Under the pieces are notes generated by a model, which did not search any database, was not told the DNA's origin, and was given only the letters and a program-made list of their open reading frames with translations. From a phage: 64,000 nucleotides of DNA. The stretch is from the sequence record PQ724392.1; one strand, 5' to 3'. A program made the translations under genes and the position numbers. Below are positions 52,220 through 61,654 of this stretch, one piece after another (position 1 is the stretch's first letter; each line of letters starts with the position of its first letter).

Positions 52220-52803
52220 TTACGGCATTCCTCAATAAAGGAGTTCAATGTATTTTTCTTAGTGATATCGTCATATACCTTTTTAACTTTAGAAATACGA
52301 AAAGGTACTTCAATAACCATAGTCCATAAAAATGATGCAATAAGCCCAGCGAGAGCAGTAGAAAAGCACGCACCCATTACAGCTACAGGTGCTTCATTTT
52401 TGCCTGTCAAGAAAAACCACAGGAATGGTAAAAATAAGATTCCAGCCCAGGCATAAAACCTGGAACAAATTAACTTATCAAATTCATCACTCCAGGTACG
52501 AAATCCATATTTCTTGCTATAAGAAATTAATGGGTCGGGTGTCTGTTCTTTGAGCGGTTCTGGTTGATGCCCATTAATGATGTATCCCATTTTATATTCC
52601 TTAATTAAAAGCTCTTTCACATGACGATTGCATCGCGACCAATCAACATTTTCCACCTTGATTCCTTCATCACCATCATCAAGGTTCGCCCAATATTTTT
52701 TGGTAATCATAAATTCATCTCTTGATACAATTATACCTGCATTTTCTGCCCGGCGGATGAAGTTTACATCAACACCCATGCACCCGGGCTCATAAAGGGC
52801 CAT
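52216..52803 (-). CDS. membrane protein, FIxEC C-terminal family
   Basis: 195 aa; two hydrophobic helices; ends FIEECRK. Confidence 0.4.
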   Translation of the reverse strand: MALYEPGCMGVDVNFIRRAENAGIIVSRDEFMITKKYWANLDDGDEGIKVENVDWSRCNRHVKELLIKEYKMGYIINGHQPEPLKEQTPDPLISYSKKYGFRTWSDEFDKLICSRFYAWAGILFLPFLWFFLTGKNEAPVAVMGACFSTALAGLIASFLWTMVIEVPFRISKVKKVYDDITKKNTLNSFIEECRK

Positions 52804-53489
52804 TACCAGCCCTCCATAGGGAATTCCAGATATACTTGAGCATTAACGCGGATTTCATTTGTAATCTTTTTAACACGGTCAGTATTACGAGACACACGAC
52901 CAAACCAGCGCCACCCGTTACTTACTGCGCGAGAACCTGTATGCCATGTCTGCCAATCAAACTGGAGCAATGTGCGGTCAGGAGCATCCCACTTGGTTAA
53001 TTCATTGGACTCAATTTTTTCCAGAACTTCTTTATGCCACTGACGATAGATAAGTTCGCCTTCAGGAATCTGACTAAATTGCGCAGTTCCGGTTGCAAAA
53101 TAAGTAGGACACACATCAGCGTTAACAAGACCAAGAATATGTTCAGAATGGTAACGAGGATTATCATAATCAGGTTGCCCTGCAGTAATAAAGTGTTGAC
53201 CAACCGGAATATCCGGGCGTGGTACATCGTCATGGTGATAACCTGGGATAGCAGGATACCAACCAGGCATCAGCATATGAACCCGAGAATCAAATACAAC
53301 CTGGTCGGTGTTCCAATCATCCGGCAAACTCATGATAAAGCTACGAGTAATAGGACCGCCATTGTCAAAAGCGAAAGCCAATGAGCTGTTGAAGAACATA
53401 GTTTCGTTTTTGATTTTATCATTAGAAATTTTACCAGCGAAACTGCCTACTGCATGAGCTTGAGAATTAAAAGTTTTTGGACCGTTCAT
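52803..53489 (-). CDS. hypothetical protein
   Basis: 228-aa ORF; His-rich patches (YHHDD, YHSEH); function unknown. Confidence 0.4.
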   Translation of the reverse strand: MNGPKTFNSQAHAVGSFAGKISNDKIKNETMFFNSSLAFAFDNGGPITRSFIMSLPDDWNTDQVVFDSRVHMLMPGWYPAIPGYHHDDVPRPDIPVGQHFITAGQPDYDNPRYHSEHILGLVNADVCPTYFATGTAQFSQIPEGELIYRQWHKEVLEKIESNELTKWDAPDRTLLQFDWQTWHTGSRAVSNGWRWFGRVSRNTDRVKKITNEIRVNAQVYLEFPMEGW

Positions 53490-53548
53490 AATATTTTCCT
53501 CATTGATTGTGGGACCATTGTGTCATAGTCCCACTTAGATGTACATAC

Positions 53549-54508
53549 TTATTTTGTGAAAGGACGAATTAAATGCTGGTTAGCTTTGAAACGTTTAACA
53601 TAGTCTTCGTGACCCAGGGTGTTGTACATATTAACCACTTCCTGGTAATGTTCCCAGGCATACTCGCGGAACCATCCAGAAGTAATGGAGGTGCAGACTT
53701 TTTCCAGCGCAATATGGAAGCTCACGGATGGAGAGATATTGAACTCATTGGGAACCTGCGAACGCTCCAGAGCGAGTACACATGCTTCTTCATAAACCCC
53801 TGCCAGTTTAATAATCTCAGGGAGTGCTTCAAATTTTTCACGCGAGGTCATAACTTCTGAATCATCCTTCATATAGAACTTATATGCAGGCTTATCAGCA
53901 AGCGCCACGGCCTCGTGGATGGAGTCATGGTCAAGGGTATAGATTGTATCATTAAAGAAAGTTTTCTTGCCCACGTCTAGTTTAGGGTGGCTATACGACA
54001 ATGTTTCTGCCTGGCGCTGCAGCATGATTTTCTGCAGTTCATCATTAAGAACAACACCCTTATTGCGAAGGTAATTAATATGACTCATGGTCTTCAGGAA
54101 GAATGGATTGTTCTTCAGGTAACGATGAGACAGTTTAATTGCCAGACAAATATCAGGAGTCGCCCAATAGAAACCTGTAAGACGGTCTTTCTTAATATGA
54201 TTTTCAGCGTATTTCAAGAGACGATAACTTGAGGTGAAATCTTCATCTTGAAGCTCACCAGTAATTTCTCGTACGTTAGTCAGGGCACGGACAATATAAG
54301 CTTCAAAATAGGTTTCTTTTCCATTGTACATACATTTAAAAGCTTGGACATCAGGGTTATCCACAGGAACATGAGCACCGAACATACGTGCTTTAAAGTG
54401 GTTCCAGGAGCCCTGGTCAGCGATAAAGTCCCAATCAGAGTTTTCAATTTTCTGACTTTCAATCAGACCAGCGTTATGTAATGCACGAGAACCAATAACT
54501 AACATCAT
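53549..54508 (-). CDS. hypothetical protein
   Basis: 319-aa ORF co-oriented; no motif recognised. Confidence 0.45.
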   Translation of the reverse strand: MMLVIGSRALHNAGLIESQKIENSDWDFIADQGSWNHFKARMFGAHVPVDNPDVQAFKCMYNGKETYFEAYIVRALTNVREITGELQDEDFTSSYRLLKYAENHIKKDRLTGFYWATPDICLAIKLSHRYLKNNPFFLKTMSHINYLRNKGVVLNDELQKIMLQRQAETLSYSHPKLDVGKKTFFNDTIYTLDHDSIHEAVALADKPAYKFYMKDDSEVMTSREKFEALPEIIKLAGVYEEACVLALERSQVPNEFNISPSVSFHIALEKVCTSITSGWFREYAWEHYQEVVNMYNTLGHEDYVKRFKANQHLIRPFTK

Positions 54509-54699
54509 AATATTTTCCTCATTAGTAAAGACGAGTTACTTCATATTTTCCAAGTGCCGATTTTTTCGCTTCAATTCGTGAGGCAGCAAGATTGGCGGCC
54601 TCTAGTGAAGAAAATTGAACCACTTGAGAAGTATTCTGTCTTACTCCACCTTGCGGGTGAGTGACAAAAACAATAAAAACATTATACATAATATTTTCC

Positions 54700-54900
54700 T
54701 CAAATAATACCGTATGCGTAAATATCTCTTTTAATGCAGGAAACTACTTCTTCCAGAGAATCACAAACACGTTCTGTGACGCCTGCGTAATCACCACTGA
54801 TGGTTACTTTAATGCCATCAGAAACTTCCTGGAGATTAACCTCCAGTTGGTTGACTTTGGCTTCGTTCAGAACTTTGATTAATTCGTTTGCGATAGACAT
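54700..54900 (-). CDS. hypothetical protein
   Basis: 66-aa ORF directly downstream of promoter cassette. Confidence 0.4.
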   Translation of the reverse strand: MSIANELIKVLNEAKVNQLEVNLQEVSDGIKVTISGDYAGVTERVCDSLEEVVSCIKRDIYAYGII

Positions 54901-54958
54901 TTTTATTCTCCTGTTCTGATAACGTGATTGTCATCAGTTGATAGGAGTATAGTAACAC
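54901..54958 (-). promoter_or_regulatory. early promoter (-35 GTATAC, -10 TACTAT)
   Basis: GTATAC-N18-TACTAT then ACTCCTATCAACTGATGACAA leader. Confidence 0.45.
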
Positions 54959-54964
54959 AGTTTT

Positions 54965-55309
54965 TTAGACTTGTATACTGCTTCTACAATATTCTAAAAA
55001 TAATTTATCGTTGTCTACCTTATCCCAACGACGCCAAGATGGATTCCAGACCAGAGCGTTGTCACCGCAATCATTGAGCTTAAAGTGGTCGTAGTACATA
55101 GCTATATGTCTGGTTTCGTCACCAGAGAACCCCAGTATATGCTCACCGTGGGTATGATACATATGATGATGCATTGAGAGGTCGCATTTGTAAAACATCT
55201 CACGTTTACCACGAACGAACAAGAAGGCTTGCCCATTCATATAGAATTCTTTATCTGTTTTCAAAAGATATTTGAATACCGAATCTTTATGCATAATTCC
55301 TCCTACCAC
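54965..55309 (-). CDS. His-rich hypothetical protein
   Basis: 114 aa with MHHHMYHTHGEH cluster. Confidence 0.4.
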   Translation of the reverse strand: MVGGIMHKDSVFKYLLKTDKEFYMNGQAFLFVRGKREMFYKCDLSMHHHMYHTHGEHILGFSGDETRHIAMYYDHFKLNDCGDNALVWNPSWRRWDKVDNDKLFLEYCRSSIQV

Positions 55310-55324
55310 ATCCTTGTGATTAAA

Positions 55325-55552
55325 TTATTTTCCTAACGAAATACGAGTAGGTTTTTTACCGAAATATTCTTCATAGGAACCATCTAAACGACCCGCTTTA
55401 GACCGACAATACGAATCATACTTTTTGTAATAAGTCAACTCGTTATTATAACGTGGATGTCTATCAGCCATAATAATACTTAATGGCCAACCTTTGGCAT
55501 AATCACGAAGACCATTTATTTTACGAATATATCTTTTCTTTAATTTTAGCAT
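55325..55552 (-). CDS. hypothetical basic protein
   Basis: 75-aa ORF co-oriented. Confidence 0.35.
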   Translation of the reverse strand: MLKLKKRYIRKINGLRDYAKGWPLSIIMADRHPRYNNELTYYKKYDSYCRSKAGRLDGSYEEYFGKKPTRISLGK

Positions 55553-55770
55553 GAGCTCGGGTGCCAGATTTTACCGTCAGGTTGAGCAACGAAGGTACGA
55601 CCAGCTTCTTCACCATAACAAGAGCTGTTCAGCCAGTCTTCAAGACGAACCTCACCATCATATTCGTCAAGCTCAATACCGAAATCTTGAGCGTTAGCCA
55701 TATCTTTTACTTTCTTATACAATGCAGCCAGTTCAAGTGCTGCTTTTTCTAATTCATTAATATCAGACAT
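55546..55770 (-). CDS. small protein, WxSSSxxC-tail family member
   Basis: 74 aa ending KIWHPSSC. Confidence 0.4.
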   Translation of the reverse strand: MSDINELEKAALELAALYKKVKDMANAQDFGIELDEYDGEVRLEDWLNSSCYGEEAGRTFVAQPDGKIWHPSSC

Positions 55771-55779
55771 TTTTATTCC

Positions 55780-55992
55780 TTAGCATTCGTAAGAGGATGA
55801 TACCCAAGAGGTACCACTAATAGTAATACAACCGTTATAAAGCGTGATATGTCGTTCTAAGTCACGAACACCATCAATGTAGATATCAGCTTCTTCGCGT
55901 TCTTCTTTACAAATCTGGATAACGTTTTCAATAGCTGCCGCGGCAGTACGGATTGCACAATCTAATTCACGAGACATATAATTCCTTAACAT
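55780..55992 (-). CDS. small protein, WxSSSxxC-tail family member
   Basis: 70 aa ending TSWVSSSYEC. Confidence 0.45.
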   Translation of the reverse strand: MLRNYMSRELDCAIRTAAAAIENVIQICKEEREEADIYIDGVRDLERHITLYNGCITISGTSWVSSSYEC

Positions 55993-56267
55993 TCAGAAGA
56001 GGAGGACACCCAACCGCCATTTTCCAGGTCAGTTGTATAGTCATGAGTGTTAACAATAGCCCATTCAGGATGGCCATGTTCTTCCCAATGGGCAAGGTCA
56101 GCTTTCAAGGCACCAGGAGAATAATAGTCACCGCCCATACCGCGAGCAGGGTATATATTAAAATGAGTCTCATATTTGTTTGCAATTTCCTCGGCACGAC
56201 GAATAGCTTTATGGATATCATTTACTGCGTTAGCCAGTTCTTTATTTTTACGGTAATCATTCATCAT
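55986..56267 (-). CDS. small protein, WxSSSxxC-tail family member
   Basis: 93 aa ending GGWVSSSSEC. Confidence 0.45.
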   Translation of the reverse strand: MMNDYRKNKELANAVNDIHKAIRRAEEIANKYETHFNIYPARGMGGDYYSPGALKADLAHWEEHGHPEWAIVNTHDYTTDLENGGWVSSSSEC

Positions 56268-56276
56268 AGCGTTTCC

Positions 56277-56567
56277 TTAGCACATTGCCGAAGAGGAGAC
56301 CCAAGCACCAACTGTAACGACACCGTTTTCAACTTCGCCGCCGTTGTTTTCAATTTCATCTTTAAACCACTGGGAGCACTCATAACCGACAGGATAATAT
56401 GTACGGCCTGAACCATAATCACCGGTACCGAATTGGATACCATATTCATCTGCGATTTCTTCACAGTGTTTTTCAATTTCAGAGGTCTTATTTAGAAGAG
56501 AATAGATAGCTTTTTCTGCAGATTTCTCATCATAATACTTGGGGATAGCAATTTCAATTTTATTCAT
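56277..56567 (-). CDS. small protein, WxSSSxxC-tail family member
   Basis: 96 aa ending GAWVSSSAMC. Confidence 0.45.
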   Translation of the reverse strand: MNKIEIAIPKYYDEKSAEKAIYSLLNKTSEIEKHCEEIADEYGIQFGTGDYGSGRTYYPVGYECSQWFKDEIENNGGEVENGVVTVGAWVSSSAMC

Positions 56568-56917
56568 GATTTACATTCCTTAATAAAGGTTTCAAGGTCA
56601 TTACGTTTTGTTTTGTCTAGGAACTTATTATACTCAGCCATTGCTGAAGCATATCTCTTCCGACTAGGAGCATTCACGGCGTTTGTGTGACAAATATCAT
56701 ACACAACCGGGATAAAATAAGCCACAACAGCCGGAGCGATTATCATAAAGAAACCCATCTCAATGGGCATGACTCCCTCGATTGCAGCCATAACCGTGGT
56801 CATTACCAGACCAACCAAACCACCGAGCATACCGGTGACAATTCCCAATAATAAATTGCCGCCAATATCATATTCAGCCAATTGATAAACATGTGATGCA
56901 AGACTAGGCCGTTCCAT
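56564..56917 (-). CDS. membrane protein, FIxEC C-terminal family
   Basis: Start moved to internal Met; hydrophobic helices; ends FIKECKS. Confidence 0.4.
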   Translation of the reverse strand: MERPSLASHVYQLAEYDIGGNLLLGIVTGMLGGLVGLVMTTVMAAIEGVMPIEMGFFMIIAPAVVAYFIPVVYDICHTNAVNAPSRKRYASAMAEYNKFLDKTKRNDLETFIKECKS

Positions 56918-57299
56918 TACGAACCTCCTTAATAAATTCTTCGGCACATTTAATTTTGTGCTCTTCTTGTAGGGAAACACATTTTTGTTCCCACTCTTTA
57001 ACTCGCCCACGATATCCTTTATTCATATGATTTTGATGCCACACATTTATCAATATCATACTCAGGACCGTAATAAAAGGAGCTGCGATTATTAGCGCCC
57101 AGGCAACTCCAACACTGATGATATCCATATCCCCACAAAGCACCATCATTATAACCCCAACGATGCACATGGACAAAGCTCCAAATGGAGGCATAAGGTC
57201 TTTATCAATCTTGTCTGCGTATACAAATTTTTCTGGTTTACTTGGCAGATATAGCGTTCGCATTTTGAACCCCTTTAGCATATTCACGACATTCAGCAA
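56904..57299 (-). CDS. membrane protein, FIxEC-like C-terminal family
   Basis: 131 aa; two hydrophobic helices; ends EEFIKEVRNGTA. Confidence 0.4.
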   Translation of the reverse strand: MLNVVNMLKGFKMRTLYLPSKPEKFVYADKIDKDLMPPFGALSMCIVGVIMMVLCGDMDIISVGVAWALIIAAPFITVLSMILINVWHQNHMNKGYRGRVKEWEQKCVSLQEEHKIKCAEEFIKEVRNGTA

Positions 57300-57810
57300 T
57301 AAAACGATTAAGCTTACGTTTCCGTTTACGACCCTCTAATGTATACTCAGCCGCCAAATCAAGAAGCTCATCTTTATCATAATTTTTAATATCAGTATAA
57401 GTTGGGCGGCGGTCAACCATTCCAAAGTGGTCACCATTTTCCAACATCAAATAACACACCAAATGGTCATCATCGTCCGCATTAATAAGCTGCTTATAAT
57501 CACTTGGTTCATTTAACGCATACACAGAATAACTCAGCCCAGCGAATTCCACTCGTTGAATACCCAGATTTACGTCAATAATTTCCAAGGCATCTGCAAA
57601 AGAAAGGTCTTCAGCTAAAGCAAAAATAAAAGGCAATTTGGTAGTATCGCCGCGACTTGTTGTTCTTCTTAAGAAATCATTGGAATAGCCCAAGTCGCGT
57701 CGGATTCTATAAAGAACTGTGTTAGTTTCAGTGGCAAGACCACTACCGCCAAACCATTCCACATTTGATAAAAGATTATCATATAAAGTCATAATTTTCT
57801 CCTCTCCCAA
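57238..57810 (-). CDS. hypothetical protein, FIxEC C-terminal family
   Basis: 190 aa; C-terminus NRFIAECREYAKGV. Confidence 0.4.
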   Translation of the reverse strand: MGEEKIMTLYDNLLSNVEWFGGSGLATETNTVLYRIRRDLGYSNDFLRRTTSRGDTTKLPFIFALAEDLSFADALEIIDVNLGIQRVEFAGLSYSVYALNEPSDYKQLINADDDDHLVCYLMLENGDHFGMVDRRPTYTDIKNYDKDELLDLAAEYTLEGRKRKRKLNRFIAECREYAKGVQNANAISAK

Positions 57811-61486: not shown

Positions 61487-61563
61487 CCTCGGTAATTGGT
61501 CGGGGTGGTGGGATTCTAACCCACAACCTACGGTTTAGAAGACCGTTGCTCTATACAATTGAG
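61487..61563 (-). tRNA. tRNA-Arg (anticodon TCT), CCA encoded
   Basis: Folded by hand: acceptor CGGGGTG/CACCCCG, D-arm GCTC/GAGC, anticodon stem ACGGT/ACCGT with loop CTTCTAA, T-arm GTGGG/CCCAC, discriminator A + CCA. Confidence 0.8.
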
Positions 61564-61565
61564 CT

Positions 61566-61639
61566 ACACCCCGGGTGGCCCCATCCGGACTTGAACCGGA
61601 AACCTGCCAGTTATGAGCCGGATGCTCTAACCAATTGAG
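61566..61639 (-). tRNA. tRNA with anticodon CAT (Met or lysidine-type Ile)
   Basis: Folded by hand: acceptor GGCCCTG/TGGGGCC (two G-U), D-loop with GG, anticodon loop CTCATAA, T-arm TCCGG-TTCAAGT-CCGGA; 2-nt spacer to tRNA-Arg. Confidence 0.7.
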
Positions 61640-61654
61640 CTACAGGGCCTAAAA

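Follow-up and report, generated by a model that had tools for sequence, protein, structure and literature searches.

Small phage proteins with a conserved Trp-Ser-Ser-Cys tail are linked to a MenT/ANT-like nucleotidyltransferase

Introduction

The pairing of a nucleotidyltransferase (NTase) with a small protein encoded upstream is a known theme that is represented by MenAT, HepT/MntA and GlnD/PII. In GlnD/PII and GlnE/glutamine synthetase, an NTase of the DNA polymerase β (pol-β) fold reversibly nucleotidylates a small regulatory protein. MntA, a minimal NTase, AMPylates HepT, the product of the adjacent gene (PMC7641770), and MenT toxins modify a serine or threonine residue of their own active site (PMC11375011). 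Here, we analyze a phage locus of comparable layout in sequence record PQ724392.1, of which a stretch of 64,000 nucleotides (nt) was studied and is referred to below as the window. An array of four small genes in the window encodes proteins that end in a Trp-Ser-Ser-Cys tail, and a gene for a pol-β-fold NTase follows them on the same strand.

The phage module resembles MenAT (MenT1, MenT3 or MenT4 with MenA; AbiEii with AbiEi) in that a small gene precedes the NTase gene. Furthermore, MenT enzymes act on tRNA 3' ends, and the phage module often lies near genes for tRNA, RNA ligase or polynucleotide kinase-phosphatase (PNKP). What do the small proteins do for, or with, the enzyme? We propose, at a probability of roughly 0.4, that they are clients or substrates of the NTase. 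Nucleotidylation of a tail serine is the version that we favor, and the estimate includes looser forms of a client relationship. A role of the tail as a recognition or modification site is the leading idea.

Results

Linkage of the small-protein family to one nucleotidyltransferase

The small-protein family is tied to one NTase subclade. In the window, the NTase gene is located 1,037 nt downstream of the array. An NTase homolog is likewise found downstream and on the same strand in six of six T4-like loci, including that of an Aeromonas phage whose neighboring genes are otherwise different. The linkage extends to Phapecoctavirus, Ceceduovirus, Acinetobacter Twarogvirinae and Pseudomonas Otagovirus phages, to an Ackermannviridae Ralstonia phage, to a Shewanella phage and to an Erwinia jumbo phage, in which the linked NTase shares 48% identity (E=2e-84), and it is seen in isolates of at least five unrelated phage lineages. 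Of the 40 IMG/VR loci that were reached via the small family, 38 have the NTase gene downstream and in the same orientation, which corresponds to all 38 informative loci because the remaining two contigs stop immediately past the small genes. The distance between the small genes and the NTase gene in these loci ranges from 4 nt to ~1.3 kb. Three metagenome loci that were reached via the NTase carry small-family genes upstream.

All-versus-all clustering of the open reading frames (ORFs) from 59 loci recovers the small family in 57 loci and the NTase in 56, and the next largest real family occurs in 19; a 30-locus cluster was set aside since it consists of antisense ORFs inside the NTase gene. 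No other gene family is common to the sampled loci. A search for a nearby modifying enzyme, which had been suggested in a preliminary description of the array made from the sequence alone, thus returns the pol-β-fold NTase as the one universally linked gene. The module is a two-component cassette that consists of one to six tailed small proteins encoded upstream and one MenT/ANT-like NTase of ~310 amino acids (aa), and the linkage hints at a so far undescribed pairing of an enzyme with putative client proteins. The T4 region from ipII to trna.4, which covers the stretch from gene e to the tRNA genes, contains neither component.

Extent of the family and its conserved tail

An exhaustive HMMER search against 1.84 billion representatives (E<=1e-3) detects the small family in 151 clusters at 50% identity, all of which come from phage or viral contigs; a word-indexed search gave close relatives only. 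Nearly all of the clustered proteins are 65-145 aa long, and the alignment reaches their very last residue. A tblastn search with the 96-aa paralog of the window (Paralog A in Table 1) finds 391 phage records, with hosts that include Escherichia, Aeromonas, Enterobacter, Klebsiella, Serratia, Yersinia and Edwardsiella, and also finds a Phapecoctavirus and an Erwinia jumbo phage. A scan of 185,579 bacterial and archaeal genomes for the pattern YGMGGTYY yields no relatives. Arrays of one to six diverged paralogs per locus are the rule.

Pfam and NCBIfam contain no model for the family, and its longer members contain no recognizable fused domain. PHROG 899, which Paralogs A, B and D match, and PHROG 4882, which Paralog C matches, are annotated as 'unknown function', and neither the tail nor the NTase linkage is recorded there. 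No sequence relative of the family profile and no fold match are found in the PDB, and a Foldseek search of BFVD returns only uncharacterized relatives such as RB69ORF139c. In the databases and papers searched, we find nothing on the small family, its invariant Trp-Ser-Ser-Cys tail, its multi-copy arrangement or its restriction to phages.

Retention of the tail in homologs, on which the preliminary description had made its reading depend, is observed in 169 of 176 collected family proteins. When these 169 proteins are aligned on the Cys (position 0), the tail begins with Gly at position -8 (98/169) and Trp at position -7 (161/169), which are followed by Val, Ile or Leu at position -6. Position -5 is occupied by Ser (120), Ala (25) or Pro (15), together 160 of the 169; position -4 is Ser in 162; and position -3 is Ser (153) or Thr (8), together 161. 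The tail Cys is the sole Cys in 96 of the 169 members. A central [YF]GxG motif, typically AYGMGGTYYP, is present in 131 of them, and the family is acidic with a median isoelectric point of 4.5. The tail is the conserved part of the proteins, and the body is the variable part.

An AlphaFold2 model of the 96-aa paralog has a mean predicted local distance difference test (pLDDT) score of 86.6 and contains a long helix (residues 14-42) that packs on a small sheet, in agreement with the helical N-terminal region that had been expected from the sequence. The tail Trp resides in the last strand, and the pLDDT falls to ~64 over the final residues. The whole small protein is thus predicted to be folded, with a flexible C-terminal tail. 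Family members share the N-terminal helix and the small β-sheet, in most cases together with a hairpin loop of the form YG(M/S)GG-TYY. The small proteins give no β-grasp match. A ubiquitin-like or sulfur-carrier identity was considered and rejected, given that there is no such match, that the tail ends in Cys and that the partner is a pol-β NTase.

Could the small proteins be independent effectors? In this alternative, they would serve host takeover or anti-defense, for example as an acidic mimic of the acceptor end of tRNA, or as a decoy target for host enzymes that act against tRNA 3' ends. The tail would then bind a host target or a metal, and adjacency to the NTase gene would reflect a shared pathway or co-transfer rather than direct contact. 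The acidity of the proteins, their phage-only distribution, the common RNA-repair surroundings and their organization as diverging arrays of several copies within a hyperplastic accessory region, a pattern that arms-race genes typically show, are consistent with such a role. However, linkage to the NTase at every informative locus across unrelated lineages with otherwise different neighbors is far tighter than co-regulation needs, and no host target can be named. We regard independent effectors as doubtful.

Chemical and processing alternatives for the tail

The preliminary description likened the helical region and the tail to the leader and core of modified peptides. This comparison to ribosomally synthesized and post-translationally modified peptides (RiPPs) is not supported as it stands, because no RiPP maturation enzyme, protease or exporter is found among the neighbors scanned (52803-57810; Pfam, NCBIfam and PHROG), the protein is predicted to be folded throughout, and conservation of the tail over a variable body is the reverse of most RiPP families. 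A RiPP-like cross-linked tail is a special case of this idea and a very unlikely alternative, in which the NTase would activate Ser or Thr, elimination would generate dehydroalanine, and addition of the Cys would create a lanthionine-like thioether cap or leave a reactive electrophile. Ser or Thr and Cys a few residues apart constitute the chemical grammar of lanthionine and labionin rings, and the small family shares this feature at its C-terminal end with lanthipeptide and aminovinylcysteine (AviCys) precursors. The Ser or Thr at position -3 and the invariant Cys and His residues of the NTase C-terminal domain (described below) also fit cross-linking. However, no LanB/C/M/KC/L, LanD, radical-SAM or YcaO enzyme is found among the neighbors scanned, the Ser-to-Cys spacing is variable and includes SSC, and a fully folded protein is predicted. 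AviCys formation, which would require Cys to be the last residue, and adenylation of the terminal carboxylate are disfavored since the Cys is not last in 10 of the 169 members.

A lipidation or processing site had been suggested as well. Bacterial lipidation uses an N-terminal lipobox Cys, and C-terminal-Cys prenylation (CaaX or Rab-type) is eukaryotic. Lipidation, secretion or proteolytic processing signaled by the C-terminal Cys is extremely improbable for the small proteins. One feature fits, namely that the Cys is the last or next-to-last residue; the proteins, which are acidic and have a predicted soluble, globular structure, lack a signal peptide or lipobox context and have hydrophilic helices as N-termini. 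Moreover, their conserved partner is a nucleotidyltransferase and not an acyl- or prenyl-transferase, and the domain scans find no lipidation- or prenylation-type transferase near the array.

The four genes of the window

The region is 94-99% identical to Gaprivervirus phages (the ECML-359, EAWsc9, SP18 and VR7 group) and ~90% identical to Dhakavirus phages such as JS98. The array belongs to an accessory region of variable content that is flanked by the lysozyme gene e and the tRNA genes and in which all genes are on the minus strand; relative to the direction of transcription, the tRNA genes precede the array by ~5 kb. The four consecutive genes reported in the preliminary description, with the C-terminal sequences KIWHPSSC, SWVSSSYEC, GWVSSSSEC and AWVSSSAMC, are present as ORFs at exactly the positions given there (Table 1). 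Their reported sizes of 74, 70, 93 and 96 aa are correct for the ORFs, but the 70-aa gene (Paralog C) most likely encodes 65 aa from Met6, as judged from a ribosome-binding site, TAAGGAA, that precedes the ATG at 55977 and from relatives that are annotated and clustered at 65 aa. The shared family hidden Markov model (HMM) and tail bear out the proposed paralogy, and by sequence the four genes are true paralogs in a phage-restricted family of small acidic proteins.

The pattern G-W-x-S-S-[ST]-x-x-C was scored as present in all four window proteins, and these are the only ones with the tail or a family-HMM match among 1092 window ORFs (stop to stop, >=30 aa). Relative to SP18 and JS98 orthologs, the ratio of nonsynonymous to synonymous substitution rates (dN/dS) is 0.00-0.34 over the array, which identifies the four genes, at the sequence level, as real protein-coding genes under purifying selection. 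The Ser codons of the tail differ from paralog to paralog, so the tail is kept at the protein level and not via recent gene conversion. A TAAGGAA junction, in which the stop codon of the upstream gene is fused to a Shine-Dalgarno sequence, precedes every paralog (55771-55779, 55978-55985, 56268-56276 and 56568-56575). The gaps at these junctions are just 9-10 nt, and this organization suggests translational coupling along the array. A scan for promoters and terminators did not exceed the shuffled background (17 sites versus 13.7 expected).

Paralog D contains two copies of the motif, the internal one at residues W46-L-N-S-S-C51, and its type also occurs in Shewanella, Aeromonas, Klebsiella and Phapecoctavirus phages. 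A fifth paralog of 75 aa with the tail FWFNSSMSC is found between types C and D in SP18 (locus L001, 6890-7117), P896 and related phages; at the corresponding site (55770-55780), the window contains only 9 nt. Sequence comparison thus indicates that the array varies between close relatives by whole-gene insertion or deletion.

The linked nucleotidyltransferase

In an alignment of 37 homologs, the residues G6-S7, D25-x-D27 and E69 of the NTase are invariant and constitute a pol-β nucleotidyltransferase signature. The helical C-terminal domain also contains many invariant residues, including Cys243, Cys272 and several His residues. The AlphaFold2 model (pLDDT 91.3) has as its structural neighbors the MenT1 toxin (listed figure, 10.2), ANT(2'') (8.7), TglT/MenT3 (8.6), MenT4 (7.9), a JHP933-like NTase (7.5) and LnuA (7.3). 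These neighbors all transfer a nucleoside monophosphate to a hydroxyl group, namely a tRNA 3'-OH or an OH of an aminoglycoside or lincosamide. PF08843/DUF1814 does not match any of the 37 homologs even at E<=10, and the PDB contains no sequence relative of the NTase. As modeled, the enzyme is a pol-β-fold NTase of the MenT/ANT(2'')/LnuA-like kind and adds a new, phage-specific branch to a known fold.

The gene neighborhood hints at an RNA- or tRNA-end context for the NTase, given that RNA ligase, PNKP or tRNA genes lie near it in some loci. Of 65 loci, 14 contain an RNA ligase or PNKP gene at a distance of up to 4 kb, and PNKP is encoded directly upstream of the first small gene in jumbo-phage-like contigs. 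Moreover, tRNA genes directly adjoin the NTase gene of Shewanella Thanatos-1, and in Gordonia JonJames they are located ~1.5 kb downstream of the enzyme gene. The loci cited for an NTase near RNA-repair genes are L008, L009, L014, L019, L025-L029, L033, L042, L050, L056, L063 and L065.

Neighboring genes outside the cassette

Four small ORFs are located between the array and the NTase gene. Their homologs are confined to the closest relatives (L001 and L002), none falls in a widely shared cluster, and the PHROGs matched among them, 9796 and 7065, have unknown function. The His-rich protein that the preliminary description placed beside the array is one of them; it exists, but it was rejected as a part of the module because it is confined to these close relatives. 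The 228-aa gene directly downstream of the NTase gene was rejected likewise, as it occurs in 12 of 59 loci. Its product is named 'phytanoyl-CoA dioxygenase' in one GenBank record and has no match in Pfam or NCBIfam.

Directly upstream of the array, two overlapping ORFs encode paralogous predicted membrane proteins that resemble e.3/e.4. Their PHROG matches are phrog_2330 and phrog_2604, and a weak cross-hit is also seen; the first ORF shares 4 nt with the start of Paralog A. The true starts of both ORFs are probably internal, as relatives annotate genes of 354 and 360 nt. The record of EAWsc9 (L002, PQ341120.1; 97.7% DNA identity) labels the paralogs and their neighbors as 'malate synthase', 'Ig-like domain', 'CAZy GH13', 'transposase', 'VirB3' and 'ubiquitinyl hydrolase'. 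Pfam and NCBIfam scans of the window genes give no support for these names, which look like over-calls of an automated pipeline.

Table 1. Features at the array locus of the window. E-values refer to the family HMM and to PHROG profiles; dN/dS was calculated against SP18 and JS98 orthologs.
Feature	Size	Coordinates	Strand	Motif codons	E-values	dN/dS	Description
Paralog A	96 aa	56277..56567	minus	56280-56303	family HMM 1.2e-22; phrog_899 3.7e-23	0.06-0.11	Main type; N-terminal helix, DYGSGRTYYP loop, tail G-A-W-V-S-S-S-A-M-C
Paralog B	93 aa	55986..56267	minus	55989-56012	family HMM 2.8e-24; phrog_899 1e-19	0.07-0.34	Main type; RGMGGDYYSP loop, tail G-G-W-V-S-S-S-S-E-C
Paralog C	65 aa from Met6 (most likely start); maximal ORF 70 aa	55780..55977; maximal ORF to 55992	minus	55783-55806	family HMM 3.6e-4; phrog_4882 3.2e-36	0.00-0.11	Short type without YGxGG loop; tail S-W-V-S-S-S-Y-E-C
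Paralog D	74 aa	55546..55770	minus	55618-55635 (internal); 55549-55566 (terminal)	family HMM 4.7e-5; phrog_899 1.9e-9	0.14-0.19	Double-motif type; internal W-L-N-S-S-C, terminal W-H-P-S-S-C
NTase	319 aa	53549..54508	minus				Pfam DUF7277 (residues 2-101) and DUF7275 (residues 120-305)
Four intervening small ORFs	55, 66, 114 (His-rich) and 75 aa	54522..55552	minus				Between array and NTase gene
His-rich protein	114 aa	54965-55309	minus		phrog_9796 (match)		Contains HHHMYHTHGEH; SMHHHMYHTHGEH; unknown function
228-aa protein	228 aa	52803-53489					Directly downstream of NTase gene; RB69ORF132c-like
Predicted membrane protein, first ORF		56564-57010	minus				Directly upstream of array
Predicted membrane protein, second ORF		56904-57299	minus				Overlaps first ORF
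tRNA-Arg(tct) and tRNA-Met(cat)		61497-61649	minus				

Discussion

The small proteins share one tail and one linked enzyme. Since the tail is common to all paralogs, it is the part most likely to be recognized by the single shared NTase. The nature of the structural neighbors, the self-modification of MenT toxins and the MntA precedent lead us to favor nucleotidylation of a tail serine within the client reading. The tail would be a common handle that docks in the acceptor site of the NTase, and the enzyme would modify one of the invariant tail serines by transfer of a nucleotidyl or, in analogy to MenT auto-modification, a phosphoryl group. The Trp residue would fix the tail to the folded body, and the thiol of the near-terminal Cys may aid positioning, for example by contacting the catalytic metal, or may react in a second step. 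The diverged bodies would then provide one NTase with several modified products that differ in their targets. The presence of one to six small genes per NTase gene, as counted from sequence, fits many substrates for one enzyme better than a 1:1 antitoxin. The likely setting would be the conflict of phages with host defenses directed at tRNA or RNA, because RNA ligase, PNKP or tRNA genes are often nearby. A bolder extension, which we consider improbable, is an undescribed phage protein-modification system that loads nucleotides on Ser-rich tails or activates Ser so that an electrophile or a thioether results. By resembling the 3' acceptor end of tRNA, the conjugates would act as decoys for, or traps of, the immune enzymes with which the host attacks tRNA ends, including MenT/AbiEii NTases, toxSAS enzymes such as CapRel, and anticodon or CCA nucleases.

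Several observations weigh against the proposal that the small proteins are clients of the NTase. The spacing from Ser-Ser to Cys is not fixed (SSC, SSxC, SSSxxC and SSSxxxC), and 10 of the 169 members carry one residue beyond the Cys, about ten ending in SSTxxC plus one. A family member on a marine metagenome contig (L015, 3178-3381), which is encoded next to an NTase gene, ends in GEWTSSSQN and has no Cys. Trp and Ser-Ser are thus steadier across the family than the terminal Cys, and these exceptions indicate that a free carboxylate on the Cys is not strictly required. Unrelated ORFs occupy as much as ~1.3 kb between the array and the NTase gene in T4-like phages. Small acidic proteins encoded adjacently upstream are likewise what MenA-type antitoxins look like. 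Finally, no small-family gene lies near the more distant and shorter NTase relatives of Streptomyces, KVP40-like Vibrio, roseophage and Gordonia phages. The NTase family therefore has a function that does not need the small proteins, which speaks for regulators or adaptors no less than for substrates.

As regulators or adaptors, the small proteins would form a non-covalent complex with a MenT-like tRNA/RNA NTase and, during infection, turn off its activity or alter its timing or target. The tail may plug the acceptor site in the manner of a pseudo-substrate; alternatively, auto-phosphorylation may be induced by the N-terminal helix, as with MenA1. Small upstream antitoxins do control MenT toxins, and the MenA1 helix triggers auto-phosphorylation (PMC10435456, PMC11375011). 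The order of a small acidic gene followed by the NTase gene, the partner-less relatives, which imply that the NTase has its own substrate, and the RNA ligase, PNKP and tRNA genes near some loci are also in line with antitoxin-like regulators or adaptors. However, several diverged paralogs per NTase are not expected of a 1:1 antitoxin, the NTase has no PF08843/DUF1814 match, and the pattern scan of bacterial and archaeal genomes gives no sign of a cellular toxin-antitoxin version. Moreover, the invariant hydroxyl residues of the tail point to chemistry more than to a simple plug. We consider such regulators the main rival but lean against them, and we retain tail-directed modification by the NTase as the preferred reading.

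Large lytic phages, both T4-like and many others, carry hundreds of small genes of unknown function. The small family, which ranges from Aeromonas and Acinetobacter phages to coliphages and jumbo phages, gains a testable handle through its invariant tail and its one enzyme partner. If the tail serves as a substrate, the cassette would represent a new viral example of protein nucleotidylation directed by an enzyme. If it serves as a plug, MenT-type regulation would be seen for the first time in a phage-borne form with multiple partners. Either outcome bears on how phages handle tRNA-directed host immunity and would assign a function to DUF7275, DUF7277, PHROG 899 and PHROG 4882.

How does the cassette compare with the described systems? 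In GlnD/PII and GlnE, the acceptor is a loop Tyr, in contrast to the C-terminal Ser-rich tail of the phage proteins; these acceptors are not homologous to the small family and serve cellular nitrogen regulation rather than phage functions. ANT(2'') and LnuA are ~160-180 aa long, act on small-molecule substrates and, unlike the phage NTase, possess neither a DUF7275 domain nor a dedicated protein partner. The closest precedent for the substrate model is type VII HepT/MntA, in which a minimal pol-β NTase covalently (oligo)AMPylates the protein encoded by the adjacent gene (PMC7641770). The HepT acceptor is a Tyr of a HEPN RNase, whereas the candidate acceptors in the phage module are tail serines of small non-HEPN proteins, and no HEPN-fold partner with an RNase motif is present. 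The phage NTase is also larger than MntA, belongs to the MenT/ANT type and is accompanied by several acceptor paralogs. With MenAT and AbiE, the phage NTase shares a pol-β core and a predicted MenT-like fold, but it has no DUF1814 sequence match and carries a distinct, highly conserved helical domain of 188 aa, DUF7275. Its small partners are not homologous to MenA or AbiEi and differ from them in their Trp-Ser-Ser-Cys tail and in their number of one to six copies. Unlike MenAT, the phage module is found only in lytic-phage-like genomes and, according to the pattern scan, not in bacterial chromosomes.

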